64,000 nucleotides of DNA, taken from IMG/VR virus record IMGVR_UViG_3300008262_000001; one strand, given 5' to 3'. Positions 2,918 to 54,174 of the stretch are shown here, piece by piece. A program made the translations under genes and the position numbers. This DNA is from a virus. Its lineage: Duplodnaviria; Caudoviricetes. The notes under the pieces were generated by a model. That model saw only the letters and a program-made list of their open reading frames with translations. It had not been told where the DNA came from and ran no database searches. Within the stretch, counting starts at the first letter, position 1; each line of letters starts with the position of its first letter.

Positions 2918-2920
2918 CCA

Positions 2921-3391: not shown

Positions 3392-3558
3392 TTTTGTTTT
3401 TTTCTTTTAATTGATTCTACCTCTTTCACTTCGGAGCTAATCTTAGCTTTCAGAGGCGGACTTTGGTAATTCATAGAAAGATCTAGATCTGGGAAATCCG
3501 TATCGCCTTTGATGTCCAATGGAAATTTAACCTTTCCATCATTAGTTTTAGCTTTCAT
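3367..3558 (-). CDS. Small hypothetical protein
   Basis: ATG at 3558 overlaps the primase TGA (ATGA coupling) and the ORF fills an otherwise empty gap; its 3' end overlaps the UvsY start. Confidence 0.35.
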   Translation of the reverse strand: MKAKTNDGKVKFPLDIKGDTDFPDLDLSMNYQSPPLKAKISSEVKEVESIKRKKQKCQSNKLI

Positions 3559-4625: not shown

Positions 4626-4643
4626 TCCGATCCATTATTAAGG

Positions 4644-5615: not shown

Positions 5616-5650
5616 AATTCTTTAAATTTTTTAAAATTGTTTTATTCAAA

Positions 5651-6340: not shown

Positions 6341-6341
6341 A

Positions 6342-10048: not shown

Positions 10049-10062
10049 AGTTCAGTTTTTAT

Positions 10063-12993: not shown

Positions 12994-13001
12994 CTTTTTA
13001 A

Positions 13002-13778: not shown

Positions 13779-13782
13779 GGTT

Positions 13783-13790
13783 TATATATC
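13783..13790 (-). promoter_or_regulatory. GATATATA motif
   Basis: 4 nt upstream of ATG 13778. Confidence 0.6.
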
Positions 13791-13806
13791 AAAAAATTTC
13801 ATCTCC

Positions 13807-16800
13807 TTATATTTTTGCTATCTGAATTGAGAATGCAATTGAGTAGTCAAAAGATGGATCTTTTGGTAATCTAAACTCATATCTGAGTTCATTGACTTTA
13901 GTGTATTTGACCTCTTGTGAGGGTAAATACCCATTTGAAAGTTTTTGATAATCTGCATAATCTCCAACTACAGAAACCAAATCAAGAGGATCTGCAAGAG
14001 GAATTTTCTTAAGATATGTTCCATTATTTTGCGATTGGAAGATAGGCACAATGTTCAATTCCATATATTCTATGAAATCGTCATTAATATCACTTTCAGT
14101 TCCGAATCCAAATTCTGGTACTATAAATTCTTGGAAAGTTTGCTTGGCACCGTCATTTAAGAAATACCTAATCAACATCCTGTCCATAAGAAGAATCCCT
14201 CTAATTTCTGTAGAGGTTTCTTCCCAAAGAATTTCATAATCTGGATAATTATCATAGTTTAATTCCAAAACATTAGTTAAAGAACTTGGATAGACAAGTT
14301 GCTTCTGGCTATTGATAGAATCAGGTGTTTGCATGACTTTACTTCCAAAGAAGGATTTCTCTTCAAGCATGCTTTTAGTACCTGGCAAACTTTCAAATGT
14401 TGTTGGATCCGTATATTGTCTATAGAACCCTGGATCCCATGAGCTTTCAAAGATTGATAAATTTCTCTTATCAATAGGGGTTTCCCCTATTAAATTGTAA
14501 ACTGGATCATAAGGAGAATCTATGCTAATTCTGAATATCCACTCAGTTGCGTATTTGTAATAATTTACATTTTTGGAAACTCCAAAATTATTTTTATTCG
14601 GGCCAAAACTGCAATAAGAATATTCTATAGCATCAACAAGATTGATTTTTTGTCCCATGTATTTTCCTCCTTGAGCAACGTAATAAACAGAGCTTGGAAA
14701 ATCATATGGCACTTCTAATTCAACGTAAGACCCCGATGATCCTGGTGTTCCTACAAGGGTATAACCTTGGGTCAAAGCATCAGTTGTTAATCCGTTTCCT
14801 CTGTTCGATGTTGAGAAGTAGATTTGATAACCAGTATTACTTGGATCACTTAGATCAAACTGATAAGTAACACCCTTAATAAGAGTAATTTTGTTTTCAA
14901 TGATTCCGTCGATCGAGTAACACAAGGTTGATCCTAGCTCATAATTTGACGAAGATTCAGGCTTCGTCACAACCTTTACATCAAAAGTGTAAACCGAAGG
15001 AATAGTCCAATATGGCAAATCAAATTTTACATTTTCAAAACCTAAAACTTCTCGGAAAGTTGGAATATATTCACCACTATATCTGTAAAGCTCACTTTCT
15101 CCTGGTATTTCATTCAGCACATATCCCACATTGAAAACGTCAAGTTCTTGTGGCTTATCTAGATCTTCTGTTGCTACCACTATTGAATTTTGTTCAAAAG
15201 CAGATGGCTTTAAAAATTCCACAACAAATTGGTTGTTTAAAACCTCTGTTGCTTTAGTAGTAGAATTCCAGATGTAAGTTTTGTACTCAATGTACGGGCT
15301 TTCTGTGTTTACCAACAAAGAGATATTAGCAAAAGATATTTTAGCAAGTATGTTTTCCCAGTATCCTATACCACCTTCTCTTTGGTAAATTGGTATGGCC
15401 AAAGCTTGGTCATAAGATACAATTGATGGAATATCAGTTGGTCCAGGTGCTCCAACATCTGCAAAGTCAAAGATGTAATCAGTTTGAGTGTTAGTGAAAT
15501 TGATGAATCCCTCACCAACTCCTGTTGGGAATGGTAAGGTGTATTGTCCAGAAGGACCTCCAGCAGTTGTTCCAATCACACCGTAGAATGAACCAGGTCC
15601 AGTTGAACTGGTTGGTCCAGGAACAGTACTTATTGGGTATGTGAAATTAATTTCTTCTCTTAAATCCGATTCATATTCTGGATTTGGTATGATATAAACA
15701 GTTCCATCATCTCCTGGAGTTCCTGAGTTAACTACAGATACAACACCCGCAGCATTTGCAGTTGAAGTTACGTTTAAAGCAGATGAAAGTTTAATATCAC
15801 CAACTGCAGGAAGTTCGATTGTTCCTCCTGGAAGCCAAGTAGGAGGTGAAGAAACCGGTCCTTCTTGTCTTTCCAATTTATCTTTCAATGAATAAAGAAG
15901 GAAATAATCCAAATCCAAGTATTGCTGTGGTGGACTAACTATTGTAGGCTCAAAATCATAAACTCTTACATCATCGATCAGTAATTCAATTACGAAGGTT
16001 ATATTTTTGAAAGTTCTGTTTTCAATTACCTTTATTTTAATAGGTGGTTGAATCTCATCCTCAATGTTTTCAACAGGAACAATGACACAAGAGAATTTAT
16101 ATTCATCATAAAATCTGTCATCAGTCAGATATTTGATTGATTCTTGTTGCCCGAAATTTGTAAAGGTTCTTTTAATTCTAACTTTTGCTCCCCTGAATAA
16201 TGTTTCAGAAAATCCATTAGCTGAATTGAAATCAAAAACACTGTATCTTTCTGATAGGTTTATATTTTCAATAGTTGTGCTATCAACATAATATTGTAGA
16301 AGATCTTCACCCTCTATTGAAAAATAGTCCAAGAAATAATCTCTAAGAGAAGGATTAGCATTTATAAGTTTAGCTTGATCTAATTCATCTGCTAAATAGT
16401 TTTTATCTTCTTTAAGAGTTTCCTCAGGTATTGAATATGGAGGTTTCTGAAGTTGGTACCACTCATGAGTAAAGTATTGTGGGTCCTGTGAATTTCTAAA
16501 AAAGCTAGGAGAGAAGTTCAGAGGGCTAAAAGCAATATTTGCATTTAAGCTGTAAGGATTTCCTCTAACATCTGTTCCTCTCTTGTAAGACCACTTTGTA
16601 ATATACGGACTAACTCTACTGATAGTTGCAAAATCTGGATTATAGTTATCCTGAGTGTAATCATATTCGGAGGACAATTTTCCAAAGTTTAATTGGGCTA
16701 ACTTTGTTTGTGATCCAACTTCATCATTCACAAATTTAAGAGCTTGAACTCCGTAAAATCCAGGAAAAGCATCCAAGTCTGGATAATATGCAGTATCAAA

Positions 16801-26209: not shown

Positions 26210-26884
26210 ATGACAACTGAAAACAACTGGACCCAGAAAAGAAAACCTAAAAATCCTATTAAATTCAAGATCACTCTAAACGACGAACAGAAAGAAGCAA
26301 AAAGAATTATTCTAGAAAATCCTGTAAATGTTCTTAAGGGAGCAGCAGGATCTGGTAAGACACTTTTGGCTGTTCAGATAGCTTTAGACTTGTTATTTAC
26401 TAGAGAGGTAGAAAGAATTGTAATCACCAGACCAACTGTAGCCAAGGAGGATATAGGTTTTTTGCCCGGCGATTTAAAGGAAAAAATGGATCCGTGGTTG
26501 GCTCCAATTTATTCAAATTTAGAGATGCTATACGAAAAGGAGAAAATCCAAAAACTCCTAGCTGAAGGGATAATTGAAATATTGCCATTTCCTTTCATGA
26601 GAGGTAGAACCCTTGTTAATTCATGTGTGGTAGTTGATGAAGCACAAAACGTCACAATGAACCAGATGGAAATGGTTCTAGGTAGATTAGGAGTCGGTTC
26701 TAAGATCATGATTTGTGGGGACACTTCTCAGATAGATCTTAAAAACAAGAAGGAATCGGGATTAGATTTCATGAACACCATCTCTGCAAGAGTAGAAGGA
26801 GTTAAGGTTATTTCACTCAAGCAAAACCATAGACATCCAATCGTTCCTTCTATCTTAGACGTTTACAGGGAGTATACAGTTTAA
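26210..26884 (+). CDS. phoH: PhoH-like ATPase
   Basis: GAAGSGKT, ITRPTV, IGFLPGDLKEKMDPW, MRGRT, DEAQN, GDTSQID, RHPIV; likely start ATG 26210 (track start 26174). Confidence 0.95.
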   Translation: MTTENNWTQKRKPKNPIKFKITLNDEQKEAKRIILENPVNVLKGAAGSGKTLLAVQIALDLLFTREVERIVITRPTVAKEDIGFLPGDLKEKMDPWLAPIYSNLEMLYEKEKIQKLLAEGIIEILPFPFMRGRTLVNSCVVVDEAQNVTMNQMEMVLGRLGVGSKIMICGDTSQIDLKNKKESGLDFMNTISARVEGVKVISLKQNHRHPIVPSILDVYREYTV

Positions 26885-29800
26885 ACCTCTAATTCCTGAG
26901 ATTCTTGTTCAAGATCGAACTTTGATAAAGGTGGAAATCCTAATGTCTTTCTGTTGTCGTAGATTGTACGAATTAGATAGTCGTCTGGATTTACAACTTC
27001 AGGAATTAAGTCTCCCGCAAAAGCTTCTTTGTGGTCTATAACACGAACTTTTCCTTTGTGTTGTGTTTCATAAGTGTTTCCGTTTGCGTCTTGTAATTGA
27101 CAAGAAATGGAATAAAAACCAGGAGTTGTGAATGTCCAAATGAAATATGGAGTTCTTCTAACCTTTACTATTTCTTCACCAGTGTCAGTGTCAGTTAAAA
27201 CCCATGTGTGGTTTTTCTTTCCAGGAATTAAAGAATCAATTGGATTTATGAAAATGGTTGAAGCCAAAGGGATTTCGAATTCTTCTTGATAGAATCTTTC
27301 CTCTTTCCAAGACCAAGAATGTGAACCTAACCAGCTTTGTACAGATCCTATGCTAAGACCTGGATCAAACCTTTCTTTAGGTATTTTCCCAATGAAAGCA
27401 TCGTTAAGTGTTCCTGGAGGAGTTGCGAGGTAGGGGGAGAAATCCGCATTGCCTCTAAATAGTCCAGTGATGTAAACATTTTCTTCGTCGTCAAGAATAA
27501 GATCTGCTCCAGAATCACTATTGACCCCACCTGCAGTTACAATGTCTATCAATAATCCATCCTTGTTGAATTTGGTCAAGTAAATATCAGATCCACCCCT
27601 AGAAACAACAGTATCTGGTGAAAAATATGCTGTAGTTGTGAAGGATCCAGTAATATAAACATTCTCTTGGGAATCACTTTCTATGTCAAAAGCAAAATCC
27701 CCAGAAGCTCCTCCACACATTTTCATCCAAATCAATTTACCAGTTGATAGAAGCTTAATGACAAAAATATCTGATGAAGAAGAGAAAGAAGAAATAGATT
27801 GACCTTCCAATTCAAGTGTTCCTGTAAATGCTCCAGTTACCAAAAGATGTCCATTTGGATCTAATGTGATTGAATTTGTAGAAATCGATGTGGTTGGTGT
27901 TGCAGCCAAAGACTCGGCCCAAAGACACGTTCCACTTCCTGCATCAAATTTTGCAAGGAACATATCAGTAGATCCAACATTTGTAAGTTCGATTCCACCT
28001 AAGTCTATAATTCCTGAAAATATTCCTGAGCAATAAACGTATTCTTCGTTAAGTACTGCGATTTCAAAAACTCTTGATATACTTGATGACTCAATTTGCT
28101 TGACCCAGACATAATCAAAATTGAAGTCAAGTTTAGCGATGAATCCATTAGAATTGGTTGCAGTTAATGTGAATGGCCCAAAGTTAACTGTACCTCTAAA
28201 GCTACCACATATATAAACGTTCTCATATTTGTCAGTTTTAACATCGAAAATAAATCTTGTGCTAGGAACTGATATTGTTAAAGAATTAAGCTGTACACCA
28301 TCCGGACTTATCTTAACTAATTCTAAGGTTGATGATAGTTGATCCTCATATACAACATACAAATTGTTGTAAGCATCTGTTGTTACAGATCTAGAGGTTA
28401 TTAAGTTTCCTGGGCTATTAAGAGAAATTGCCCATTGTAAAACCCCTACCTTATTATACTTAGTGACGTAAACACTTTGCGAGGATTCAGTAAGAGTGAC
28501 TGTGGAAATATTGCTTTTTTCTCCCAAAGTTATTGTTCCTCTGAAATCTCCTATGCCTATAATAAAGCCTTCAGAATCAACTGTAAGTTTAACTCCCTGG
28601 TCATTAAAATTACTTCCAAGTGTTACTACCCATTCGAAATTTTGGAATAAATCATTTGATTTTTTCTGCAGAATTCTTTCTATTTGAGCGTTTCTCCAGT
28701 AACTTTCCTTAGTCGCTTTTCCGCTAATAATATCTCTAAGTGGTGCATATAAGAAGGTATCATTTAAATTTAGAGAAGGGAATTGGTTTTTCAAACTTTC
28801 TAATGAATACCTCTGCCAAGTTGGTTTATACCAAGAATATCTGTCAACAGAAGGAATTTCTGGTCTAACTATATTGGAATCTAAAGTGATGTTGTCATAG
28901 AACGGACCAACTAAGAAATTGAATCCTATTTGGTTGTTTCCTATAGCAGAATTGTAAACATATTTTATTTTAGGAAGGGGCGTCGATGTTTCGTGATAAA
29001 CAAAATCCCAACCATTTGTTCCACTAAACTTAGATGTAGCGTGAATGTGAGGAATAATATAATCTAACTTACCTATTTCTCCAGCTAAAGTTGTAAATAT
29101 TAAATTTCTAGGGAAAGTTGTTTCTCCATTCTTAATAGTTTTCCAGGGTGCTGAAAGAGCAGATTTTCCGTAAACATTTGGACAAGGATCAATAGGAGTT
29201 GATCCATCGTTTCTATATAGAACCTGAGTGAAGAAGTAACCATCAAAGAAATAAAGCTCAGATGAAGAAGGTGCTGTTTCAATAGCAAACCAGATATTTC
29301 CGTTGCCTGTTTCAACTATGTTTGTAAAGTTACCAACAGAAATCTCAGGATTAGTTGAATTGTTCCAAACTGCCCATCTTTCCTCGTCCCAATAAGCTAA
29401 TCCGTTATCAGTTCCTATCCATTTATGATTTAGTGAATCGAGTTCAATTGAATAAACATCATTAGAAGGAATACCAGAACTGGATGTATTGAAGTTTCTG
29501 AAGTTAACCCCATCAAATCTAATAAGTCCAGCATTTTCAGTAGCTATCCATAAATACCATTTAGTGAATGAATAATATTCCAGTCGTAAATCTCTAATAA
29601 TATCATCACCAAGATCTGAATTGGAAGGAGTAAAGAGTTTCCAAGATTTTCCAAATCCATCATAGTAAAGAAGTCCATTATAGGAAGGTGATGTATTTGA
29701 AATAAAAGCTGCAAAAATATCCCCTGATTGTGGATTAATCTCAATAACTTTAATACTTGAGTTAGCATCTGGACAAACCATATTCCCCTGATTGTCTATG

Positions 29801-32800
29801 AATTCTGTTAAATCATAAGCATAATTTTCTTCTGGAGCATTGTCATTTATTTTAACCAGAGGTTTGTCAGTGTTCTCAACACCTATCCATTTAACATCAT
29901 TGCTATCGATTTTGATGCAATTAGTTTGTACCGCTATTCCAGGAATAGGACTGTTAGTACTATTGTATGTTTCGAAATTGGCACCATCAAATCTGATTAA
30001 ATCCTCTCCCGTAACCCAAATATCCCCATCACCGTCCCAAGCAATTCCTGTTGGTTCAATTATAACTGGTGAATATGAAGGAATAGCCCAGAAGTTCGAT
30101 GTCACATTTCTTGGCCCTGGAGTTGTAGTGATATCAGGAGAAATGAGGTTTCCTTCAGGATCTTCTGGTAATTCAGAATATCCTCTTACCACATAATCAA
30201 ATCTTTGTATGTTTTCGTCTTCTGACAAATTCAATTGATTAGCAGCTTCGAAAAGATCTAGGTATGAATTTCCGGGCGAATCAGTCTCAGTAAAGACAAT
30301 ACCATTGGTTTGTTCAGAAACTCTTACTCTATCTCCATATTGCAGAGAATAGAGATCGAATCCGCCCAACCAGTCGTTGTGATAATCATACATGTCCCAA
30401 GTGTGGGCATATGCTTTTGCAAACTCGAAATCTTCGAAGGTGTCCCAGCAAAGTTTTTTCGTTCCCCAATATTTCATTTCTGCTTTCGGAAGTGCCCCGA
30501 AATCATATTCAACATACTCTTCAGTTTGATTAGAACCTCCAGAGAATGTTGTTGATAATGGAGATGCATGGATTGATCCAGAGACCTGCACTACTAAGCT
30601 CTTACCATTCCATAGTGATCCTGAGTCATTAGGAGCTTGTATAACGAATGTTTTATCACCTGAAGTGATTATTGAATCAGTTAAGCTAATGATCTTGTAT
30701 TTGGGCTGTAATACAGAATTATTAATGGCACTGTATATTACACTGGATGTTGATTCAATATCTCCTTGAAAATTACAATCAGCAATCTTAATTGAATCAG
30801 CAAATATTTTTATATTTCCTGGACCAAAAGCAGAGCCACCACTAATGGGAGTTATTACAATTTCTGGAATCTGGAAAGTTGTTGATGAAAGAACATTGAT
30901 TACAAACTGTCCATAGGGATCATCTGAAGAATCTAAAATCCAAACAGTGTCACCTGTTGTGTATCCATGAGCAGATGTTGTTGTAACAACTGCAAGGGAG
31001 TAACCTCCATCAACTAATGTGCTTTCGATTGTTGAAACAGCAACTGAATCCACTCCCATCTCAAAAGTTGTTGTGGCTTTAACTTCTGCTATTTTAGAAA
31101 GTACCTCACAACTTTGACCCTCATTGAAGTTATTTGAATATTCAGGGAAATTTTGGATAAAGTCAGAAATAAGACTTGTTTCGTCCGTGTTTTCAACAGG
31201 CCAGATCCATTGTGATGGATAACTTTCCCATTTCAAAGGCATATTTTCCCAATCGTACTTTTCAGATTGTCTAAACCTAGTTATGGTGTTCAATTCAATC
31301 TCTCTTTTTCCGACAGTGATTACGCTTCTTTTAATGCCTAACGAAATGGAATTTAAAGTGTCCCAAACTCTACACTTGACATTATAATCTCCAGTATAAG
31401 GAAGAAAGTGAACTATTGTTTCTAATTCAGGAAGACCCCCTCTAATTTGGAAATAATAAGGTCTATCATCTTCTTTGTAAATTGTCCACTCAATTTCATA
31501 AAAATCTAAGTAAGGTAACCTTGACCAAGAGTAAAATCCTCCCGAATTTACATAGTTTTGGAAGTAAGTAAAACTATAGGAAGAGAAAGTCAAATTGGTA
31601 GGACTAACATTCCAGCTCGAATAGCTTCCTGATCCTCTGGTGCTTATTACCTGAATAGTTATTAAACCAGTAGCGGTGTCATACCCACCAGGAATAACAT
31701 ATCCCAAACAAAGATTACCAGGGGAAGTATCAGATTCAACTCTAACAAACACATTATCTGAAGAAGCAGAAAACCAATCGTTTCCAGAACCGATATTAAG
31801 TAAAAGAGTTTGTGGAAAGGTATAGCTTAATTCAAAACTTGTGGCTGATGTTACTGTTTGAAAAGGAGTACCAGGATTGCTTTGAATGGTTCCAGTGTAA
31901 CTTGCTATGTCAAATAAATCTGTTGTGATAGTTGGATCTAAAGTTTCCCAAGTAGCACTTATTTCGTCCCAGGCCAGATCAAAAGTTGAATCAGTTATAA
32001 TCACTGGGCAACCAGCAGGCAAAACGTGTTCGGTACCAGACGAGAACAATTGATAACCTGGATAATCATAATCCCCGTCTCCTAAGAATTTAGGCATTGT
32101 TCCTTCTTCAACATCTTGATAGTAAGATTCTATCGCAGTTTTAAACGGTGCAATAGAAGGTACTGGATATTCTTGAAAAAATGAATAAGGATCTACTGTG
32201 TTACCATAATAGCTTATTCCTAGCTCAGTTCCATTGATATTAGGATAAAGAAGAGATTCCTGGTTGGGTTTTGTATAAAAAACTCTTAGGTCCTCGATGT
32301 ATCCCTTTTCTGGAAATACTGTGAAGTCTACCTTTATTCCAGATTTAATTTCACTTATTCCAAGTTGATCAACCCAACCCCTGGTTTTGTAAATGTTAAA
32401 ATAAACACCTTCACCTGTGATGTCTACTATTCTTGCATTGAGAGGTAAATAGTCTCTTTTCAAACGCTCTTTGAGACCGAAAAGTTTTATAAGAACTTCT
32501 TCAGGGCTAAATAAGAAAGCATCCTCAACAACAGGATACCCAAACTCGTCTTCGTCTACTGAATCATTAACTCTATTGATGTCATAAAAAAGTCCAAAAA
32601 GTGAAGTCTTTTTAAATGATTTGGACGGAAATAGTTGTTCATACTGTTTCTTGAGACCAAAAGACCCATCAGGTTTTTTTCCATAGATCTCAACTTGCTT
32701 GAATTTCCCCTCATTTTCGTCTTTCAATAAACTGCTTATGAGAGAAAGAGAATCTTGTCCTTGTAAGTTCTTTGTGGCTAACTGCTTTAAGATTTGTGAA

Positions 32801-33651
32801 TTCTGCTGTAAAGGAGTAAGTACTGAAGCAGAATCTTTCTTAATATTTAGCCAATATTCTTTAATTCTAAGATCATAGTATCCAAAGAACTTAATAGCAT
32901 TAAATAAGGATTTATATGAGCCAAGGTAAGGAAATATACTTTCTCCTGTTAAAAGAAGTTCCTTTCTTTTTTCGTTTATAATTTTAAAATCAGGAAGAGG
33001 TTCTTTAATGTCAGTTTCTCTAACAATAAAAGAATCTTCAGCAATAAAAGACCTTCCAAAATTGTCAAGTAGAACACCTAATCTTGAATCCTCTCCCTCA
33101 ACTTCTCCGTGAAAATTCACTCTAAGAATTGTAACAGGATTATCAGGATCTGTATAGTCTTCTAAAATTAATACTCTATCATATACACCCTCATTATCAG
33201 AATTGAGAGCAATATTGATCTGCATTGAAGAAGAAGTGATTTCGGATGTAACCACTAGTCCTGAAGGAGATGATATCACATCACCAGGAACAACTTCAGG
33301 GAAAAACTCTACATTATCTGCTTCAACTAAAATTGGTGCATCTAAGTTTCCGTCTACACCTAATTCATAAGTGTAGATAATAGAAGAAACATCAACCTTT
33401 CCATCATAATCTGATTCCCATTTAGTTCTCCAAACAGGAGTTCCTGGGCTAACACCATAGCTGTGAGGAAATCCATATTTTGTCTCAGAAAGATTATCCA
33501 GGAATTTTTCGATAACAAAAATGTGTTCGATTTCAAAAAGCTTTTCTGAAACCAAGGGGAATAATACAGATCCTTCCCAATAATCTCCATTCCATTCGAA
33601 ATTATATTGCTCTCCCTGTTTATCGAAAAATAATAGATTCTGATTAACCAT
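26881..33651 (-). CDS. Giant baseplate wedge (gp7/P2 gpI-like) protein with beta-propeller and PKD-like domains (2256 aa)
   Basis: IFPYLGSYKSLFNAIKFFGY wedge-type motif; NSTNSPIP / SGIPSNDVYSIELD...KWIGT propeller repeats; NVYITGSF...SDIYLTKF SBBP-type repeats; downstream of gp25/gp6. Confidence 0.65.
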   Translation of the reverse strand: MVNQNLLFFDKQGEQYNFEWNGDYWEGSVLFPLVSEKLFEIEHIFVIEKFLDNLSETKYGFPHSYGVSPGTPVWRTKWESDYDGKVDVSSIIYTYELGVDGNLDAPILVEADNVEFFPEVVPGDVISSPSGLVVTSEITSSSMQINIALNSDNEGVYDRVLILEDYTDPDNPVTILRVNFHGEVEGEDSRLGVLLDNFGRSFIAEDSFIVRETDIKEPLPDFKIINEKRKELLLTGESIFPYLGSYKSLFNAIKFFGYYDLRIKEYWLNIKKDSASVLTPLQQNSQILKQLATKNLQGQDSLSLISSLLKDENEGKFKQVEIYGKKPDGSFGLKKQYEQLFPSKSFKKTSLFGLFYDINRVNDSVDEDEFGYPVVEDAFLFSPEEVLIKLFGLKERLKRDYLPLNARIVDITGEGVYFNIYKTRGWVDQLGISEIKSGIKVDFTVFPEKGYIEDLRVFYTKPNQESLLYPNINGTELGISYYGNTVDPYSFFQEYPVPSIAPFKTAIESYYQDVEEGTMPKFLGDGDYDYPGYQLFSSGTEHVLPAGCPVIITDSTFDLAWDEISATWETLDPTITTDLFDIASYTGTIQSNPGTPFQTVTSATSFELSYTFPQTLLLNIGSGNDWFSASSDNVFVRVESDTSPGNLCLGYVIPGGYDTATGLITIQVISTRGSGSYSSWNVSPTNLTFSSYSFTYFQNYVNSGGFYSWSRLPYLDFYEIEWTIYKEDDRPYYFQIRGGLPELETIVHFLPYTGDYNVKCRVWDTLNSISLGIKRSVITVGKREIELNTITRFRQSEKYDWENMPLKWESYPSQWIWPVENTDETSLISDFIQNFPEYSNNFNEGQSCEVLSKIAEVKATTTFEMGVDSVAVSTIESTLVDGGYSLAVVTTTSAHGYTTGDTVWILDSSDDPYGQFVINVLSSTTFQIPEIVITPISGGSAFGPGNIKIFADSIKIADCNFQGDIESTSSVIYSAINNSVLQPKYKIISLTDSIITSGDKTFVIQAPNDSGSLWNGKSLVVQVSGSIHASPLSTTFSGGSNQTEEYVEYDFGALPKAEMKYWGTKKLCWDTFEDFEFAKAYAHTWDMYDYHNDWLGGFDLYSLQYGDRVRVSEQTNGIVFTETDSPGNSYLDLFEAANQLNLSEDENIQRFDYVVRGYSELPEDPEGNLISPDITTTPGPRNVTSNFWAIPSYSPVIIEPTGIAWDGDGDIWVTGEDLIRFDGANFETYNSTNSPIPGIAVQTNCIKIDSNDVKWIGVENTDKPLVKINDNAPEENYAYDLTEFIDNQGNMVCPDANSSIKVIEINPQSGDIFAAFISNTSPSYNGLLYYDGFGKSWKLFTPSNSDLGDDIIRDLRLEYYSFTKWYLWIATENAGLIRFDGVNFRNFNTSSSGIPSNDVYSIELDSLNHKWIGTDNGLAYWDEERWAVWNNSTNPEISVGNFTNIVETGNGNIWFAIETAPSSSELYFFDGYFFTQVLYRNDGSTPIDPCPNVYGKSALSAPWKTIKNGETTFPRNLIFTTLAGEIGKLDYIIPHIHATSKFSGTNGWDFVYHETSTPLPKIKYVYNSAIGNNQIGFNFLVGPFYDNITLDSNIVRPEIPSVDRYSWYKPTWQRYSLESLKNQFPSLNLNDTFLYAPLRDIISGKATKESYWRNAQIERILQKKSNDLFQNFEWVVTLGSNFNDQGVKLTVDSEGFIIGIGDFRGTITLGEKSNISTVTLTESSQSVYVTKYNKVGVLQWAISLNSPGNLITSRSVTTDAYNNLYVVYEDQLSSTLELVKISPDGVQLNSLTISVPSTRFIFDVKTDKYENVYICGSFRGTVNFGPFTLTATNSNGFIAKLDFNFDYVWVKQIESSSISRVFEIAVLNEEYVYCSGIFSGIIDLGGIELTNVGSTDMFLAKFDAGSGTCLWAESLAATPTTSISTNSITLDPNGHLLVTGAFTGTLELEGQSISSFSSSSDIFVIKLLSTGKLIWMKMCGGASGDFAFDIESDSQENVYITGSFTTTAYFSPDTVVSRGGSDIYLTKFNKDGLLIDIVTAGGVNSDSGADLILDDEENVYITGLFRGNADFSPYLATPPGTLNDAFIGKIPKERFDPGLSIGSVQSWLGSHSWSWKEERFYQEEFEIPLASTIFINPIDSLIPGKKNHTWVLTDTDTGEEIVKVRRTPYFIWTFTTPGFYSISCQLQDANGNTYETQHKGKVRVIDHKEAFAGDLIPEVVNPDDYLIRTIYDNRKTLGFPPLSKFDLEQESQELEV

Positions 33652-46214: not shown

Positions 46215-47090
46215 TTATCCTCCTGTTGCTCCTGTTCCTCCAGTAGCAGAACTAGGTAAAGATACAGGTTGGCTATTTTGTGCTGGGACTGTAGGAAGGT
46301 CTGGTAAGTTTTCCCTTGTTACCCTTACTGTCTGACTAGTTGCAAGCTGTTCAAAGCTTTGTGCTAATGTGGAACTTACACCAGGTGTTACTGGAAGTTT
46401 AGCATCTACTGCGATGGCTAACTTCTTCAGAAAATCCCAAAGAGGCTCAGCACAAATCGCTGAGAAAACCGGGGAATGTCCGAGGTTGGTAGTTTTTCCG
46501 TCCATCCAAACTTCCTCAGAAGAATGCTTAATTCTAGTAACTGCAGTATTCTCTATCTCTTGGTCAGCATACTTAGTGATTTTACCTCCTTTTAGCTCAA
46601 TAGACGAAGTATCGTCCGCATGAGTGATCAATATCGAGTTATCGTTTCGAATGATGATTTTGGACTCCTTTAGATCGATTACAAGACCTTTCTCTACAGT
46701 GTAATAAATTTTTAATCTCTCGATTCCATCATAAATAAGGGAATGAGCTCCATCGTAACTTGCCCTGATTTCATCGATGAGATCTGGAGAAAGTTCCTGC
46801 ACTGCTTTGTATTCTGGACTGTAATAGTTGCCATTATTGAATTGGACGTGTACAACTGAACCTAATTTAGGAACAGACATTCTTCCAGATCCTCCACCTA
46901 GACCATAACTCATATCAAATCTTTGGTGTGACCAGGGCAAATCCTCATCACCAACCCCATCATAAACTCCGAATATCCTAATTTTTGCTCTGCCTTTAAA
47001 TTCTGGATCTTTGTTGTCAATTACAACACCTAGAAAGTGAGCAACTTCAATATTACTATCAATTAAATGTTCTCTTGATATCAGTGTCAT
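46215..47090 (-). CDS. Baseplate hub/spike protein, gp5 N-terminal OB-fold type (no lysozyme domain)
   Basis: GVVIDNKDPEFKGRAKIRIFG...DLPW...VPKLGSVVHVQFNNG OB-fold motif followed by short beta-helix strands. Confidence 0.8.
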   Translation of the reverse strand: MTLISREHLIDSNIEVAHFLGVVIDNKDPEFKGRAKIRIFGVYDGVGDEDLPWSHQRFDMSYGLGGGSGRMSVPKLGSVVHVQFNNGNYYSPEYKAVQELSPDLIDEIRASYDGAHSLIYDGIERLKIYYTVEKGLVIDLKESKIIIRNDNSILITHADDTSSIELKGGKITKYADQEIENTAVTRIKHSSEEVWMDGKTTNLGHSPVFSAICAEPLWDFLKKLAIAVDAKLPVTPGVSSTLAQSFEQLATSQTVRVTRENLPDLPTVPAQNSQPVSLPSSATGGTGATGG

Positions 47091-47106: not shown

Positions 47107-50064
47107 TTAAATGCTAGGGTTTTCATTGTTATTTGATTTAGGGTAAACTCTTCCAAGGTTTACTGGGGCTGAAGGAGGAACATTATATTCCGCGTTACCA
47201 AAAGCTCTTGGGTAAATTCTGTCAGATCCTCCTAAGAGAGATCCAGGTACATTAGCGTAAACGTCCTCATTTGTTGGTGGATATTGTCTTCCTGGTGCAG
47301 AGAGCGATGATCCAGGTACTGTAGGGAATTCATCGGGAGCTTTTGCTCCGGGATAAGTTCTTGCTGGTGCACCTAAATCTATTCCTGGAACAGTTGGATA
47401 GGAGTCATCGTTGACTGATTCGTACACTCTTCCCAAACCTCCAAGATCCCGACCAGGAACCCCTGTGTATTCATCTTTTGGTGTGACTGGTTTGTATTCT
47501 CTGGTAGGTGCTCCTAAGTCTTTTCCAGGCACATCAGGATAAACATCACCATCTGGAGTTTTGTAAACTCTTGCTAGTGCACCAAGTTCCGAACCAGGTA
47601 CGTTTTTGTATTCATCTTTAGGAGGAGGAGCATTATAAACCCTTTCAGTCCCTCCTAAATCAGGTCCAGGAACTCCCGGGTAAGCATCACCCTTAGGTTC
47701 ATCATAAATTCTTCCCAGTGGACCTGAATCTTTACCAGGAACTTCAGTGTACTCATCTTTTGGTGGAGGTACTTTATATTGCCTATCAGGTGCTCCCAAG
47801 TCGGGTCCAGGAACCCCTGGATATAAGTCACCAGTAGGCTCAGAATATACTCTATCAGGAACACCTAGATCCTTACCAGGAACTCCCTTAAACTCATCAC
47901 CTGCAGGAGGGCCAGGATAGGCTCTTTCTGGTGCTCCAAGATCTGTGCCTGGGACATCCGGATAAACATCACCTTTTGGTTCTGTATAAGCTCTTAAAGG
48001 AACGCCTAAATCTGCACCGGGGACATCTGAATATTCATCATTCCCTTGTACATTTGGATAGAGTCTTTGTGGCGGGCCAAGATCCGATCCAGGTACATTA
48101 TTATAAAGATCATCATTAAGAGTTGGATAAACTCTTTGAGGAACACCAAGATCCGATCCAGGTACATCGCCATATTCATCAGAGTTTACTGGTGGATATT
48201 GTCTATCAGGAACACCTAAATCATTTCCAGGTACGTTTCCGTAAACATCAGAATTTATTGTTGGATAAACTCTCTGTGGAACTCCAAGATCTGGACCAGG
48301 AACGTTATTATATTCGTCTGTAGAGACTGTTGGATATTGTCTTTCTGGAGCGCCTAAATCAGTTCCAGGAACGTTGTTGTAAACATCATCTTGAAGATTG
48401 GTTGTTCCTGCTCCTGAATTGGGTAAAACATTTCCAAGATTTTGTCCAGCTTGTCCGTTAACATCAGGATACACATCCGAATTTATTGTTGGGTATTGTC
48501 TTTCTGTAGGACCTCCAAGTCCTCTAGCTTGTGGCGTGTTGTCCTGGAATGGGTTAGGAACTCCTGCTTGGATAGTGCTCACCAAGCTTTGAACACTGGA
48601 TAAAGCTTGTCCTGCATTTACACCACCTAATCCGTAAATATTTCCAAGTAACGCTCCCTGAACGATGGATACACCTTGATTAGTTAAATCTGCAACAGTA
48701 TTGTTAATAAAGTTAGATGCAAGTTCTGCAGCAAACTGTCCTGCATTTCCCCCGGGATCCACAAAAGCATCACCGAATCCAGTGCTGTTAGCGTAATCTG
48801 AAAAATTGTAATCTGACTTAGGGTTTTCCCAAAGATCAGAAATAACCATGCTTTTGATGTTATCGTTTTTCTGAATGACATCTGCTAACTGATTGAACTG
48901 AATTTTATGATCCCTTACTCTTCCCACGTGTATCTTAAACTTTGTGGAGACTGATTGACCTCCTTTGTTGTCAATTGACGCATAAGAAGGAAATGTTTCA
49001 TCGAAGTCAAATTCACACTGATCAAATTGGTAAATGAAAGCATAAGGTCCTAAAGTATAAGATCCGAATTTGTCATTTCCCGGATCTTCGGCATTTGTAG
49101 ATCTTTGTAAAAGTCCTTCTGTATTATTCAACAAACCAGTTTGGCTATTAAAGCTATCTAAAAAGTTAGCTGCTTGTGCTACAGAAGGAATCTGGAAAGG
49201 GTTCAGAATATCGTTGATTCCATATGTGAGTTGAATATTTCTTATCTCAGTTACTATCAGCCACATTCTGAACTTTCTGAGATTCTCAGGGAGCATAACT
49301 CTGTGGTAAGTGTAGTCATAAATAGCCTTTCGATAAAGTTCTGAAAGACCAAATATTCTCATGTCGATTGATTCTAAACAATCTATGCTTAAAGTTCCTG
49401 CCCTTTTTGGAATACTTCCCTTTTTGTGGTAATTTTTGATATCAGTTTTTAAAAGCTGATCTAATCCACTAACATTTTGGAAGTAGTATGGACAATTTTT
49501 ATTAACGAAATCTAATCCCCTTTTAAAAGCTTCAAGCATTTGCTGTCTTTTCTGAGATCTTTGATATAAAAATTGTTGTGCTCCCATATAGGCAAGAGGG
49601 GAGTTAGCGGGAAAGAATCCATAATTTGCTCTGCTGGGAATTTTTCCCTTTGATCCATAAAAATAATCTTGGGAAGTTCCAAATCCTGAATTTGTAAGAT
49701 TTTGTATATCATTAGATATTCCGGTAATATCTGAAGGATTCTTTCCACTTCTGAGTGCTTCTAATGTTCTTGCCTCAAGATCTCCTGCAGCCGCGTTAAT
49801 GTTACCAACACCATTAGCTGAATAAGATCTAAATAACGGGGAAGGGGCTAAAAAGGTTTCCTCGTCTATTAAGGAATTGTTCCCAAAGTCGAACATAAAC
49901 TTGAAATAGATGTAGGTAGGATCTTCTTTCTTTCCGTGTTTCGTAGATGAAATTCCCTTCAGAAATTTCTCTCTCTGGAAATCTATTTTTCTGTTTAAGA
50001 TATCTCCAGTAGGTAAAACGTTACCAGCTAATCCTGAACCAAAATCCGATATAAAATCTGCCAT
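47107..50064 (-). CDS. Tail tube-like (gp19/gp54-type) protein with a C-terminal tandem repeat array
   Basis: N-half TLSIDCLESID...RKAIYD...IYQFDQCEF tube-fold pattern; 17 C-terminal repeats. Confidence 0.55.
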   Translation of the reverse strand: MADFISDFGSGLAGNVLPTGDILNRKIDFQREKFLKGISSTKHGKKEDPTYIYFKFMFDFGNNSLIDEETFLAPSPLFRSYSANGVGNINAAAGDLEARTLEALRSGKNPSDITGISNDIQNLTNSGFGTSQDYFYGSKGKIPSRANYGFFPANSPLAYMGAQQFLYQRSQKRQQMLEAFKRGLDFVNKNCPYYFQNVSGLDQLLKTDIKNYHKKGSIPKRAGTLSIDCLESIDMRIFGLSELYRKAIYDYTYHRVMLPENLRKFRMWLIVTEIRNIQLTYGINDILNPFQIPSVAQAANFLDSFNSQTGLLNNTEGLLQRSTNAEDPGNDKFGSYTLGPYAFIYQFDQCEFDFDETFPSYASIDNKGGQSVSTKFKIHVGRVRDHKIQFNQLADVIQKNDNIKSMVISDLWENPKSDYNFSDYANSTGFGDAFVDPGGNAGQFAAELASNFINNTVADLTNQGVSIVQGALLGNIYGLGGVNAGQALSSVQSLVSTIQAGVPNPFQDNTPQARGLGGPTERQYPTINSDVYPDVNGQAGQNLGNVLPNSGAGTTNLQDDVYNNVPGTDLGAPERQYPTVSTDEYNNVPGPDLGVPQRVYPTINSDVYGNVPGNDLGVPDRQYPPVNSDEYGDVPGSDLGVPQRVYPTLNDDLYNNVPGSDLGPPQRLYPNVQGNDEYSDVPGADLGVPLRAYTEPKGDVYPDVPGTDLGAPERAYPGPPAGDEFKGVPGKDLGVPDRVYSEPTGDLYPGVPGPDLGAPDRQYKVPPPKDEYTEVPGKDSGPLGRIYDEPKGDAYPGVPGPDLGGTERVYNAPPPKDEYKNVPGSELGALARVYKTPDGDVYPDVPGKDLGAPTREYKPVTPKDEYTGVPGRDLGGLGRVYESVNDDSYPTVPGIDLGAPARTYPGAKAPDEFPTVPGSSLSAPGRQYPPTNEDVYANVPGSLLGGSDRIYPRAFGNAEYNVPPSAPVNLGRVYPKSNNNENPSI
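47194..48387 (-). repeat. Coding tandem repeat, 17 units of 23/24 aa (69/72 bp), consensus DxYxxVPGxDLGxPxRxYxxxxx
   Basis: Units read directly from the translation; 398 aa in total. Confidence 0.95.
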
Positions 50065-50073
50065 TTCTTTCTT

Positions 50074-51699
50074 TTATTTTCCAAATATATCGCTCTTGAT
50101 GCTTCCTATATCTTCCTGCAAAATCGAAGAAGCATTTTCTACAAGATCATTAAAGTTCGGATCATTCTCTTTAGGATTTAAAGGAGAAGGATCAGAAGCA
50201 ATTCCAGGATTGAGTGACCATTGCTTTTTGCCTAAAAGCAAAGTTTGGTGCATTCCATCTTTTTTATTGTATTCAATAGTGAAACCAAGTACAACATAAT
50301 TTCCTGACAAAAAAGTATTCGGTACTCTTTTATCTGGTGGTGGTGCTAATGAGGTTCCGTCACCACCTGCGGCAGTGTATTTTGAATCTCCGGAAATAGT
50401 GCTACTTCCCTCTTGAACTATATTAACAGGAAACGTTTGTCCTCTATAAATAAATGGTGTCCAAGCTCTGTTCTTAACCTTAAGAAGAATTTTATAACTA
50501 TCGTTCCTATTTAAGATATTCTGAACTTGTGCTTGCTGAAAATTTTCATGAACATTATCGAAATAAATTGTTCCAGCGTAAGTGTTTTTAACTTCCTCTT
50601 TATAAAGAGATTCACCTAGTCTTCCTTTGTTCAAAGCGTCTCTTGCCCCTAAATCTCTATTTGTAACAGACTCAATTTTATAGCTAACGAACTTATTTTT
50701 GGGTTTGTCAGATGTCAGATTGGAGTCGTAAAATTGAAGATTTTGAAAATATCCTATATCATTATTAATTTGTCCAGCATTGTGCTGTAATGACATTGCT
50801 GTGATAAATAAAGGGGATTTACTATAGCTCGTTTGGTTTGTTAATAGAATCGGAAACTCAACCTCAGCAGTTTCTGCACCAGGCGCTAAATCTGGAGTGT
50901 AGTCCGCTCCATAAGCCATTCTTATCGTTTCGATTGTGGAATTTTGTTCATCAAACTGTTTTTTTAAATTAACAAGATTCAAGTTGTAATATTGATCAAT
51001 CCAACAATCAAAATAATCTTGTTCTCCTAACCAAGAACTATTGACAATGTGTTTTATTGCGTTTTCGTATTCAGTACTTGGAGAAATCCAAGTCATCGAA
51101 TCATTTGTTTTTGGTTCATTAGAAGCGTATCCTAGATTTAATTCTTCAGCCATTTTAATTAAAACATCAGAACTTGTTCCTTTGTAAGCTGCAGAATTAT
51201 GCCTATATAATTTAGGAATTCTAACTTCGCCCTTGACTGTATAAGTTTGGAATCTTCCAGTAGAGGGTTCAAAGTTATTTTCATCACTCACTGTGTTAGC
51301 TCTAGAAAAAGGGGAAATGACCTCAGTCACAATGAAGTCCATTCTTATAGGCTTAAACATTTCACCTAAAGCCCTGATATAAATTGAAAATATGTCGCCA
51401 TCCTTAGGAAAGGATGTGAAAATAAATCTCTCGTCGATCGTTTGAAATCTGAATATTGCGGTGGGTTTGAATCCTGTCATATCCAATTGAAAATATGATA
51501 GTCCCTTTACAATAACACTATTAATCCGGATCAGTGGCTCTGCCATACCGAACCACTTCTTCTGGATATTATTTGATTTTTCATCATTTACTTGAGTGTT
51601 GCCCTCTTGCGATGAAGTATCAAGCACAGAAAGTTCGTCCAGAAATATATCAGGATTGCGATATTGGAGAATTGCTTTTCTTACATTAAATTCTGCCAT
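50074..51699 (-). CDS. Baseplate hub protein, gp27/GpD-like
   Basis: Position between the gp53-like and gp5-like genes; GTSSDVLIKMAEELNL...WI...CWIDQYYNLNL pattern of hub proteins. Confidence 0.6.
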   Translation of the reverse strand: MAEFNVRKAILQYRNPDIFLDELSVLDTSSQEGNTQVNDEKSNNIQKKWFGMAEPLIRINSVIVKGLSYFQLDMTGFKPTAIFRFQTIDERFIFTSFPKDGDIFSIYIRALGEMFKPIRMDFIVTEVISPFSRANTVSDENNFEPSTGRFQTYTVKGEVRIPKLYRHNSAAYKGTSSDVLIKMAEELNLGYASNEPKTNDSMTWISPSTEYENAIKHIVNSSWLGEQDYFDCWIDQYYNLNLVNLKKQFDEQNSTIETIRMAYGADYTPDLAPGAETAEVEFPILLTNQTSYSKSPLFITAMSLQHNAGQINNDIGYFQNLQFYDSNLTSDKPKNKFVSYKIESVTNRDLGARDALNKGRLGESLYKEEVKNTYAGTIYFDNVHENFQQAQVQNILNRNDSYKILLKVKNRAWTPFIYRGQTFPVNIVQEGSSTISGDSKYTAAGGDGTSLAPPPDKRVPNTFLSGNYVVLGFTIEYNKKDGMHQTLLLGKKQWSLNPGIASDPSPLNPKENDPNFNDLVENASSILQEDIGSIKSDIFGK

Positions 51700-51704
51700 A
51701 AGTT

Positions 51705-52310
51705 TTATCTTCTAAAAATGTTTTTCTGTGCAAGTTTCGTTTTAATATCAGTAACAGATACGTTTTTCTTCGCTTTAGTTTTACATTGACCTATATCTGG
51801 ACCAAATAAAAGTTTTCCATCAGCAACTAGTATTTGTTGTTGACCCTCTTGTAATAAATTAGTCGGAAGTGGAACATCAGCTAAATTCGAAATATTCTTT
51901 GAATTAAGGTATTCCAGTCTTTCTTGACTAACTTGTGAAATCTTCTCTTGTAGCTCCTTTCTGAAAGATTTAGCTTTTTGTTTTTGGTTAGTAACTGCTC
52001 TACCACTATTGAAAAGATCCCTTACCATTGTTTCCCCAGGAACAGCTAGGATTTCTCCAGATTTCACTGTAAGTGGATTAGAGATATTATTAAGTTTTAA
52101 TAAGCTTCCTAATTCTGCAGAATTTCCCATATATGAGAGAGCAACTAAGTCAGCTCTCATTTCCGTTTCCTCTGTTACTATTGCAAGTGTTCGCAGAGAG
52201 TATCTGATATTTTTGGGATCCCATGATGGTGTCAAAAGATCCACAGATTGAACCTTAGTTTTTGGATTAACAAAAAAAGGTTTAGAGTCTATTATATCAA
52301 TTGAAAGCAT
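51705..52310 (-). CDS. Baseplate wedge gp53-like LysM protein
   Basis: EMRADLVALSYMGNSAELGSLLKLNNISNPLTVKSGEILAVP LysM-like motif. Confidence 0.75.
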   Translation of the reverse strand: MLSIDIIDSKPFFVNPKTKVQSVDLLTPSWDPKNIRYSLRTLAIVTEETEMRADLVALSYMGNSAELGSLLKLNNISNPLTVKSGEILAVPGETMVRDLFNSGRAVTNQKQKAKSFRKELQEKISQVSQERLEYLNSKNISNLADVPLPTNLLQEGQQQILVADGKLLFGPDIGQCKTKAKKNVSVTDIKTKLAQKNIFRR

Positions 52311-52320: not shown

Positions 52321-54174
52321 TTAGTTGCTGGTATTCCCCAGATTGTTATTTGGTGCCCCTTGCAAGATCAAATTGTCTAGGCTTTGTTCATTTACTCTTA
52401 ATCCTGAAGTATTAATGTAAGCCTCTGTAGTTTCTGTGCTTTCAACCAATTGGCCTAAGTATAATCTACCATTACCTCTATTGAACATAGATTCCCAATC
52501 TCCTCTGTGTCTTTGTCTTCCTGGAGAAAGAGTGAAAGATGCTGTTAGTTCTGTTGGAAAATCATCTGGACCTAGATCATCTCCAAAATTGATTTTAACA
52601 TTTGTGCAAACTAAGTTTCCTATCATTGCGATAGGATTCAATGGATTTCCAACAACTAAATGCCATTCACCAACTGGGTATCCACTAAGCATTATGGGTT
52701 GATAATAAACTTTTCTTAAGAACAAATCACTTAGCATTACTGCTATAGAGTTATAGAACTTGCCATCTTTTGGAATACCTTTACTTGGATCTGCGATAAA
52801 CTGTTTGATTTCGTTTGTTGCCTGTTCTATATCACTTTTTAATGATCCCTCAGCAGAAGCTATATTATTGACATTTTGCTCAGAAAGAATATTCGAAACT
52901 TGGTCTTTGATGTATCCAATCGGATCAACAATAGATTTAGCGTATCCTTTTGCGCCTCCAGGGAAACCTAGACCTACACTAGTTTGTTCTAATCGAAGTT
53001 CAGGAGATAGGAATTGTCCGTAATCTGTTCCAATCGACAATAGATTCGTCATTAAATCAAGGAAAAGTAATTTAGAATTTACTGTTCCTACTGATGTTAA
53101 ATTATAATCAAACGTCAAAGTGAAAGACGATTGTTCATCACCACCAGTAAATCCCTGCTTTCTCGTCATCATTTTGTTGACTGTATTGACATTAACAAAA
53201 ATCTTCTTCGAAAGTGGACCATCACCTGATGTGGCTCCATCTAATAGCTTTCTCCTTAGCGCATTTATATTTTTTTGTGGTGACGTAAATGTACCAAGTA
53301 ATTTGTCAAGTCCTTCAACGTCTAAATTATTATTACCACTAGATATGAAGGATTTTATTAGGTCTCCAAAAGGTGAATTCATCAAACCAGGGTCACCAGT
53401 TTGCTCATTTTTTAGAGGCTCTTGTGTGTCATAGCTAAAATTAAGACCTGTGCTTATTCCGAGTATAGGAGTAAGATTATTTCCAGTGCCTTCACCAAAA
53501 TATGTGACTGCCTGTGCAACAGGAAGCGTTGTATTTTCTGAAGCATTGCGATCTTCCAATCGGTCTCTTAAACCACCAATACTAGCTTCTTCCACTGTAA
53601 CTTTCCCATTTGCAAGTTTAATACTTGCTGGTTTGGGTGGTAAAATTCTCAAAGAATCCAAAGTGGGATATGGGAATCTTCTCAGAGTAAGCATTCTATT
53701 GTTTGGAATTATTCCGTAGTGCTTACAAAAAATAAAATCTTTCACGTTATAAACCTGTCCTCGGTATGGACTGTTTGGATCCATAAAAGCAGGTACAGAA
53801 CCTGATGTTGATGTACCTGATACTGTGTCAATAATCATTTTAGCAGTCGGATTTCTTGACACTCTCGGGGTTATCTCTTGGAGGTACTCAGTAGTTTCAG
53901 AAAGATCGTATCTTACCTTTTTACCTTGTGTATTTTTTCCAAGAACATAATATGCAAAAAGACCAGAATAGACTCCATCAGAAGTTGCAGCATCATAAAA
54001 TAAGCTTTTGGGAAGATCATTAAGTTCACTTAACTCATAAGTAGCAAAAGTTTTATCTGCTGCTGAAACATAAATACCAGTAGCGAACCTCTGTACTGTA
54101 GGATCTGCTACACTTCCTCCAGAGGATGCACCACTGATCCCATTTTTGATTGAATCTGTATTAGGAACTCCCAT
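52321..54174 (-). CDS. Baseplate tail-tube initiator (gp48/gp54-like)
   Basis: First gene of the hub operon; FTLTFDY and NLVCTNVKINF...FPTELTASFTL tube-fold C-terminus. Confidence 0.5.
   Translation of the reverse strand: MGVPNTDSIKNGISGASSGGSVADPTVQRFATGIYVSAADKTFATYELSELNDLPKSLFYDAATSDGVYSGLFAYYVLGKNTQGKKVRYDLSETTEYLQEITPRVSRNPTAKMIIDTVSGTSTSGSVPAFMDPNSPYRGQVYNVKDFIFCKHYGIIPNNRMLTLRRFPYPTLDSLRILPPKPASIKLANGKVTVEEASIGGLRDRLEDRNASENTTLPVAQAVTYFGEGTGNNLTPILGISTGLNFSYDTQEPLKNEQTGDPGLMNSPFGDLIKSFISSGNNNLDVEGLDKLLGTFTSPQKNINALRRKLLDGATSGDGPLSKKIFVNVNTVNKMMTRKQGFTGGDEQSSFTLTFDYNLTSVGTVNSKLLFLDLMTNLLSIGTDYGQFLSPELRLEQTSVGLGFPGGAKGYAKSIVDPIGYIKDQVSNILSEQNVNNIASAEGSLKSDIEQATNEIKQFIADPSKGIPKDGKFYNSIAVMLSDLFLRKVYYQPIMLSGYPVGEWHLVVGNPLNPIAMIGNLVCTNVKINFGDDLGPDDFPTELTASFTLSPGRQRHRGDWESMFNRGNGRLYLGQLVESTETTEAYINTSGLRVNEQSLDNLILQGAPNNNLGNTSN

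Follow-up and report, generated by a model that had tools for sequence, protein, structure and literature searches.

Introduction

In contractile tails, tube-initiator rings occupy the mechanical centre, and as a rule they are compact. In bacteriophage T4, the baseplate encloses the tube-junction ring at its centre, and contraction moves the ring along with the tube (10.64898/2026.03.06.709160). Here, we describe a gene on the minus strand of a 64,000-nucleotide (nt) stretch of viral DNA (Caudoviricetes; IMG/VR record IMGVR_UViG_3300008262_000001), the whole of which is called the window below. Like gp54 and gp48 of T4, its product appears to have a single tail-tube-fold domain with insertions, and its gene lies in the hub/spike cluster. 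T4 gp54, however, consists of 320 amino acids (aa) and has no repeat arm, whereas here the core is followed by 480 aa of tandem repeats, and no sequence or profile similarity was detected between the two proteins; the protein described here has no PHROG match either. The arm is a previously undescribed repeat family on a core of a known kind, that of the tube-fold baseplate proteins.

The anatomy of the protein is solid, and the family to which it belongs is large and sharply defined. It appears that a clade of abundant uncultured freshwater huge phages, represented by hundreds of contigs, added a strictly periodic, strongly conserved and length-variable arm to its probable tube-initiator ring. 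This well-defined new protein family is a concrete structural target, and it may reveal a new repeat fold or a new form of tail-envelope engagement. The array had been noticed in an initial annotation made from the DNA letters alone, and the analysis reported here followed up that observation.

Anatomy of the Repeat Array

The protein (985 aa, P0001; Table 1) was assembled independently from ENA and JGI samples and is identical on the two contigs, which excludes an assembly artefact. Its C-terminal 480 aa are built from the unit D-x-Y-x-x-V-P-G-x-D-L-G-x-P-x-R-x-Y-P-x-x-x-G. The units were located with the V-P-G motif as an anchor and were cut at the D of D-x-Y. The V-P-G motifs follow one another at spacings of 23, 23, 23, 23, 24, 23, 24, 23, 24, 23, 24, 23, 24, 23, 24, 23 and 23 aa, so that units 1-4 are 23 aa long, units 5-16 are 24 and 23 aa long in turn, and unit 17 again has 23 aa. 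Each of the 17 units was found by a unit hidden Markov model (HMM) at E-values between 1e-9 and 1e-14. D1, V6, P7, G8, R16 and Y18 are invariant in 17/17 units, and position 3 is occupied by Y or F.

All eight even units start with D-E-(Y/F), whereas the nine odd units start with D-x-Y, in which the second residue is V in five units, L in two, and A and S in one each. The alternation is already present at unit 1: the odd units (A) contain G-A-P...R-Q-Y and the even ones (B) contain G-V-P...R-V-Y. Since A and B units alternate in sequence as well as in length, it is the A-B pair, or di-unit, that constitutes the real module; this pair is 46 aa long at first and 47 aa long from unit 5 on. Besides the 17 clean units, two to three degenerate ones are found at the ends of the array (the unit HMM matches weakly at aa 507-535), which makes ~19 copies overall. 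A six-frame search of the whole window with the unit HMM gave no match beyond this protein's own units.

In the initial annotation, an array of this description had been placed at nt 47107-48387, and it is indeed there, the array proper covering nt 47197-48387. The count of 17 units of 23/24 aa stood up, as did the distinction between DE(Y/F) and D(V/L/A/S)Y starts (8/8 even and 9/9 odd units), but the length of the array is 397 aa and not 398 aa as had been stated. The 24/23 alternation, which had been described as strict from unit 5 to unit 17, holds for units 5-16. The 47-aa super-repeat is present in this protein from unit 5; otherwise, it is a local variant of a 46-aa di-unit that occurs throughout the family.

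The Tube-Fold Core

Two AlphaFold2 (AF2) models were built, one of the whole protein and one of aa 1-505 with a broader alignment, and both gave a confident beta core at aa 50-390, with core strands at a predicted local distance difference test score (pLDDT) of 60-92. The N-terminal model was compared with 48,161 PDB representatives by VIA. The best match was chain 5iv5_BG of the T4 baseplate-tube complex (Z 10.5, 176/192 residues), followed by the tubes of phiKp24, phiKZ and P1 and by chain 9mkb_AC, which has the tube fold and comes from the T4 portal-neck-tail complex, the top Z-scores being 10.5, 9.5, 8.9 and 8.6. All of the best 50 rows (50/50) were tube or Hcp proteins, and they spanned model residues 41-392. 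Foldseek returned chain BQ of 9f4b with a probability of 0.96 and chain BQ of 9f4a with 0.80; a sequence search identified this chain as a T4 gp54 homologue. The named matches in BFVD were "baseplate tail tube protein", "baseplate tail tube initiator" and gp19. In the models, the beta-sandwich of the tail-tube fold superfamily (gp19/Hcp/tube initiators) takes up one whole domain, and the label "tube-like" given in the initial annotation is well founded for aa 40-390. In a comparison with the trimeric hub of the gp27/VgrG type, which is pseudo-hexameric by virtue of two tube-like barrels in each chain, one tube-fold domain was matched and no gp27 chain was among the matches listed; aa 276-339 and 389-505 are low-confidence regions of the model. 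The connector that follows the core (aa 391-506) is also modelled at low confidence, with a single long predicted helix at aa 441-473 and the invariant residues N475 and Y477 near it.

Like the genes of gp54/gp48-type proteins, this gene lies in the hub/spike cluster, not only in the window but also in 79 loci related to it. By fold and gene context, and not by sequence family, the core appears closest to the T4 gp54-type baseplate-tube junction proteins. We infer that the gene product is the baseplate-tube junction protein ("tube initiator", T4 gp54-like) of an uncultured freshwater huge myovirus.

Novelty and Spread of the Repeat Family

No curated model of a described repeat family (e.g., RTX, collagen, YD or cell-wall-binding repeats) matched the arm. 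The whole protein hit no Pfam family at E<=0.1, with noise alone at E<=10; NCBIfam and PHROGs gave no matches, and the PDB sequences returned only noise. The ESM Atlas, searched with the arm, gave no usable match. In a full-text search of the searchable literature, nothing of relevance turned up for the motif strings or for tube initiators that bear repeats. When a 46-column di-unit profile was run, index-free, against 1.84 billion representative proteins, 37 matches were obtained, and all of them except two belonged to this family or were fragments of it. Both exceptions were rejected as spurious: the repeat of P0146, a WD40 protein of eukaryotic origin, is unrelated, and P0151 is a dehydratase-like protein with one motif-like stretch. 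As the di-unit profile finds one family only, the repeat exists in a single architecture. The initial annotation had not recognised the repeat and had called for such a profile search, the outcome of which agrees with that view.

The family itself is widespread. A word-indexed search with the arm yielded at least 420 clusters at 90% identity, all of them annotated as "hypothetical", on contigs of up to 453 kb, and IMG/VR holds 344 related contigs. All members come from uncultured large phages.

Selection on the Repeat Units

The mean pairwise identity between units, calculated over an 18-aa core, is 61% at the amino acid level and 62% at the nucleotide level. At identical residues, the third codon positions agree with a frequency of 0.53, and codon usage alone gives 0.34-0.75 depending on the residue type. 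Tandem Repeats Finder (TRF) picked up the first units only (period 69/138, 70-78% matches). Because amino acid identity is about equal to nucleotide identity and third positions are at the level set by codon usage, the array must be old, not homogenised, and kept by selection at the protein level. The earlier impression of conserved amino acids encoded by diverged DNA was thus correct. Purifying selection was detected at 14/23 unit positions. Synonymous sites between units are saturated, yet the motif is kept in relatives with as little as ~30% identity in the N-terminal part.

Copy Number of the Units

Length statistics were calculated for 64 distinct loci, rank correlations for 52 loci, and coefficients of variation (CV) of neighbouring genes for complete genes. 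The N-terminal part of the protein is constant in length (CV 0.05), and the arm ranges from 199 to 1510 aa (CV 0.57), which is a 7.6-fold difference. The copy number varies tenfold, from ~5 to ~58; the units detected number ~5 to 54, and the ~58 of locus L064 were counted by eye. The extremes of the family are the proteins of L064 (nt 9992-15937, 1981 aa) and L072 (nt 9989-14917, 1642 aa). In the former, the ~58 units form 29 near-perfect 46-aa di-units, the DNA units being 63-83% alike.

Close relatives of the window protein differ from it by 47, 48 or 94 aa, i.e., by whole di-units. In ~125 proteins, the spacing is overwhelmingly 23 aa, and the variants found in particular lineages always have a period of two units (23/24, 23/26, 24/25 and 17/23). 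Insertions are confined to the inter-unit linker and follow the same period-2 pattern; in the 17/23 lineage, alternate units are 17-mers without the G-x-D-L-G-x-P-x-R core. Among 125 proteins with at least eight consecutive units, identity at lag 2 was clearly higher than at lag 1 in about half. Given copy numbers between 5 and ~58 in relatives, the arm is more likely an adjustable appendage than a ruler, and the 5-58 unit series represents a natural experiment on the effect of arm length.

Physical State and Proposed Role of the Arm

AlphaFold, supplied with a 52-sequence alignment, modelled the whole arm as coil with a pLDDT of 30-47 and without strands. The arm is rich in proline (16.6%), glycine (13.6%), aspartate (10.8%) and tyrosine (8.1%), has a net charge of -29, and contains no Trp, Cys, Met or His. 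A complex prediction with three copies of aa 606-745, run without controls, scored 0.02, a value that has no bearing either way on self-association. An extended, flexible chain with regularly spaced Asp/Tyr/Arg sites is slightly favoured over a regular fold, since the prediction contains no strands and half of every second unit can be lost in one lineage.

Our tentative reading is that the arms are acidic, Pro/Gly/Tyr-rich appendages of variable length, probably six in number, which are carried by the tube-junction ring and act as a multivalent contact or tether. Judging by its fold and gene position, the core (aa 40-390) would assemble into a ring with the central hub/spike on one side and the tail tube on the other. 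The C-terminal arm, a clade-specific addition, would be present once per ring subunit and probably six times per virion. The C-terminal additions of other tube-fold proteins lie on the outer face, and for this reason the six arms are proposed to leave the outside of the junction ring in the same way. Their many identical Asp, Tyr and Arg sites, set at a fixed pitch, would engage a conserved partner. The motif is invariant while the cores diverge to 30% identity, which argues for a conserved partner or for self-structure rather than for a variable receptor. Most likely, this partner would be polymeric and belong either to the host envelope or to the surface of the virion itself, rather than consist of a set number of sheath or tube rings, and the length of the arm would be free to drift or adapt. 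The arms may be displayed before infection, or they may be stowed and then carried into the periplasm with the tip of the tube.

Several points weigh against this proposal. The match of the core is at the level of fold only: hhalign, run with a 48-sequence N-terminal alignment against the single sequences of T4 gp54 and gp48, gave a probability of 0.2 and E-values of 0.26-0.37, which still leaves room for distant homology. With no profile relation to gp54 or gp48 detected, the assignment rests on fold and context. Moreover, if the junction ring is buried and moves as in T4, an arm anchored outside would need to be released or stretched (10.64898/2026.03.06.709160). Quantisation of the spacing (23 aa, or 24, 26 or 17 aa in period-2 variants) and constraint at 14/23 positions make this array stricter than disordered motif arrays usually are and fit a regular fold. 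Low AlphaFold confidence is no proof of disorder, and novel or oligomeric repeat folds score low too.

A regular fold would make the arm a rod, each 23-aa unit forming a single coil in a three-sided beta-solenoid or a single bead in the shaft of a fibre. Such a rod might need oligomerisation or bound cations, and the ring might then bear six rigid pins with a length set by the unit number, like variable virus fibre shafts. Within each unit, Gly/Pro turn sites occur at exactly three places (P7-G8, G12-x-P14 and P19...G23) and set apart three short segments, which contain Y3/V6, L11 and R16/Y18, and the quantised spacing in ~125 proteins and the restriction of period-2 insertions to the linker point in the same direction; fibre shafts also tolerate large changes in repeat number. 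We regard a rod as a serious competitor but as less likely than the flexible chain, given the strandless, low-pLDDT model, the presence of only ~4-6 hydrophobic residues per unit in a chain of high net negative charge, and the 17-mer lineage, in which the loss of the core from every second unit is hard to fit to a uniform solenoid. In another scenario, the arm is stowed around the hub/spike in the baseplate until contraction carries it with the tube tip into the periplasm, where its repeats bind a periodic polymer, e.g., peptidoglycan, and anchor or extend the end of the tube. The arm is covalently joined to a tube-fold ring protein, and its motif persists in phages whose hosts are probably different, as would be expected for a conserved ligand. 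This course of events seems improbable to us, as the best fold match is a gp54-type ring and not the distal-most gp48-type one, six arms of 1200-1500 aa (L064, L072) would be bulky to stow, and Pfam and NCBIfam searches revealed no recognisable binding or lytic domain.

A ruler or lacing along the sheath or tube rings, as suggested in the initial annotation, would have the units bind successive rings, with their number matched to a parameter of the tail. The strict pitch of the periodic repeat agrees with this idea, as does the tube fold of a subunit that would sit at the tube base, but the lengths of the neighbouring genes make it very unlikely. An arm of ~5-58 units, with a length CV of 0.57, stands beside neighbours with CVs of 0.02-0.07: the LysM-like protein has 186-211 aa (CV 0.02), the CV of the gp13-like protein is 0.015, and that of the protein encoded after the spike (the post-spike protein) is 0.07. 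The length range is 1.24-fold for the post-spike protein and smaller for each of the other conserved neighbours. Relatives with a post-spike protein of 1690-1772 aa nevertheless differ between 5 and 18 detected units, and near relatives with identical neighbour lengths have 11 vs 13 or 40 vs ~58 units. Early data points had suggested that arm length tracks the post-spike protein; this was rejected, because the correlation (rho 0.59) is no better than that with an irrelevant control, the gp13-like gene (rho 0.61), and reflects clade structure rather than coupling. A tape measure is long, mostly helical and scales with the tail, whereas the arm is predicted to be non-helical and varies 7.6-fold beside constant tail genes. 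As far as neighbour-gene lengths reach, unit number is uncorrelated with any structural parameter, an outcome named in the initial annotation as counting against its model, and within the gene lengths compared the data speak against one unit per ring. The alternative given in that annotation, a multivalent binder, may still apply. Similarly remote is the idea that the arm serves as an acceptor scaffold for the phage's own glycan-synthesis island, every unit being modified so that a glycosylated brush surrounds the baseplate. Immediately upstream of the operon, genes for sugar synthesis and transferases fill ~15 kb (Pfam, locus L003), a relative with 23 units has GT2, GLF and TylF genes just upstream, and invariant Tyr, Asp and Arg residues come at constant intervals. 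Other relatives, however, have no transferase genes within 10 kb upstream, Ser and Thr are scarce (4-4.5%) and do not occupy conserved positions, and the adjacency of genes is no evidence of a substrate relation.

The preferred reading, multivalent appendages on the junction ring, can be taken one step further. The arm could be a length-tunable baseplate organelle, whose array of Tyr/Arg/Asp sites is perhaps modified by the adjacent glycan genes, and which is deployed in the course of infection from the tube-junction ring to grip a periodic polymer of the envelope or to bridge the periplasm. We regard this extended version as a long shot. If it were true, multivalent arms that engage the host could belong to tail-tube proteins themselves, without any involvement of the tail fibres.

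Neighbouring Genes in the Window

The gene order LysM-like protein, hub-like protein, arm protein and gp5-like spike (Table 1) is kept in 79 loci, and the position of the spike is the same in all related loci. The assignment of the 541-aa protein as a hub is a lead; its feature neighbours in the language-model (Atlas) search were Phage_GPD or GpP/Gp44-like families (0.95). In most relatives, the post-spike protein measures 1432-1772 aa; one sub-clade either lacks it or has a gene for 170-510 aa in its place. This sub-clade includes the longest arms, and its arm proteins end in a conserved tail, G-N-L-K-x-K-D-K-Y-N-I-S-x-G-G...K-F-E (loci compared: L006, L007, L063, L064, L066, L072 and L085). 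A fission link between the tail and the post-spike protein was considered and discarded, as the tail gave no match in any frame of the window. Beyond the post-spike gene lie gp13-like, gp25-like and gp6-like genes.

Table 1. Parts of the arm protein and other features of the window, with their positions.
Feature	Position (nt)	Strand	Evidence or remark
Whole coding sequence, tube-fold baseplate protein with C-terminal repeat arm, 985 aa (P0001)	47107..50064	-	Stop-free frame
Tail-tube (gp19/Hcp) fold core with helical insertions, gp54-like, aa 40-390 (predicted)	48895..49947	-	AF2, VIA, Foldseek, BFVD
Conserved connector, aa 391-506	48547..48894	-	Low-confidence model
Degenerate lead-in, aa 507-559: half a unit, then one unit split by a Gly/Asn-rich insertion	48388..48546	-	Unit HMM
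17 clean 23/24-aa units, i.e., 8.5 A-B di-units of 46/47 aa, aa 560-956	47197..48387	-	
Degenerate 18th unit and short tail, aa 957-985	47110..47196	-	Ends in the clade-typical N-L-G-R-x-Y-P
gp5-like OB-fold central spike, 291 aa, next downstream	46215..47090	-	phrog_430, E 1.9e-14; PF04717, weak
Probable baseplate hub (P2 gpD/Mu gp44-like), 541 aa, next upstream	50074..51699	-	phrog_35886
LysM-like baseplate protein, 201 aa, same operon	51705..52310	-	phrog_7145 baseplate wedge subunit, weak
Post-spike protein ("X"), 1749 aa	40963..46212	-	Length comparator, outside the arm
617-aa protein	52321-54174	-	
183-aa open reading frame (ORF)	6342-6893	-	phrog_45, E 8e-6, weak
785-aa ORF	6890-9247	-	
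258-aa ORF	13002-13778	-	Endolysin PHROGs, E 7e-6, weak
976-aa protein	10063-12993	-	Collagen-like stretch, aa 35-70
2256-aa protein	26881-33651	-	SBBP beta-propeller repeats
Replication block	1391-6355	-	

The hub operon is headed by a 617-aa protein, for which nothing was found in Pfam, PHROGs or NCBIfam; wherever the gene of a relative is complete, the product is 602-642 aa long. It was considered as a proxy for the tape measure and set aside: its length is conserved, but its sequence is unlike a long helical tape measure, and it was not used as evidence. At a distance from the hub operon, between fibre and replication genes, lies a pair of ORFs. The 183-aa one, which matches a tail-tube PHROG, is a candidate for the tube gene, and the 785-aa one, which overlaps it upstream and has no family match, is of a position and size that would suit a sheath gene. 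The replication block, consisting of genes for a DnaB-like helicase, a primase, a single-stranded DNA-binding protein (SSB) and a RuvC-like resolvase, directly adjoins the tail genes. The 258-aa ORF is situated among giant fibre/baseplate genes and may encode a virion-associated wall hydrolase. The 976-aa protein and the 2256-aa protein, in which the propeller repeats are near the C-terminus, are probably fibre or receptor-binding proteins.

Comparison with Known Systems

The N-terminal core is shared with armless proteins of cultured jumbo phages, namely, gp255 of Sphingomonas phage PAU (413 aa) and ORF-235 of Tenacibaculum phage PTm1 (401 aa), and shorter matches to it were found in Flavobacterium phage MaF61 and in the Prevotella Lak phages. 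These homologies were observed with tblastn at E-values of 1e-7 to 4e-14 over aa 150-385, and in BFVD at 1e-15 to 1e-19. ORF-235 of PTm1 also resembles the gene described here in its position directly upstream of a gp5-like gene. The PAU and PTm1 proteins differ in that they stop after ~400 aa. In the tblastn searches against the PAU, PTm1, MaF61 and Lak phage records, no match reached the repeat part of the query, which indicates that the arm was added in one uncultured clade.

Tube-fold subunits with a C-terminal extension that is dispensable for the tube fold are known from other phages. The Ig-like domain of lambda gpV, T5 pb6 and SPP1 gp17.1* are comparable to the arm in this respect. Their extensions, however, are single folded Ig/FN3 domains present on every tube ring, whereas the arm is a long tandem array that would be confined to one baseplate ring. 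In composition, the arm is reminiscent of resilin, of elastin-like V-P-G-x-G repeats and of the decapeptides of mussel foot proteins, with which it shares a P+G content of ~30%, 8% Tyr, short tandem units with P-G turns and the lack of a predicted fold. It differs from them in having no sequence relation (Pfam), a longer unit, a much stricter conservation and a strongly acidic character.

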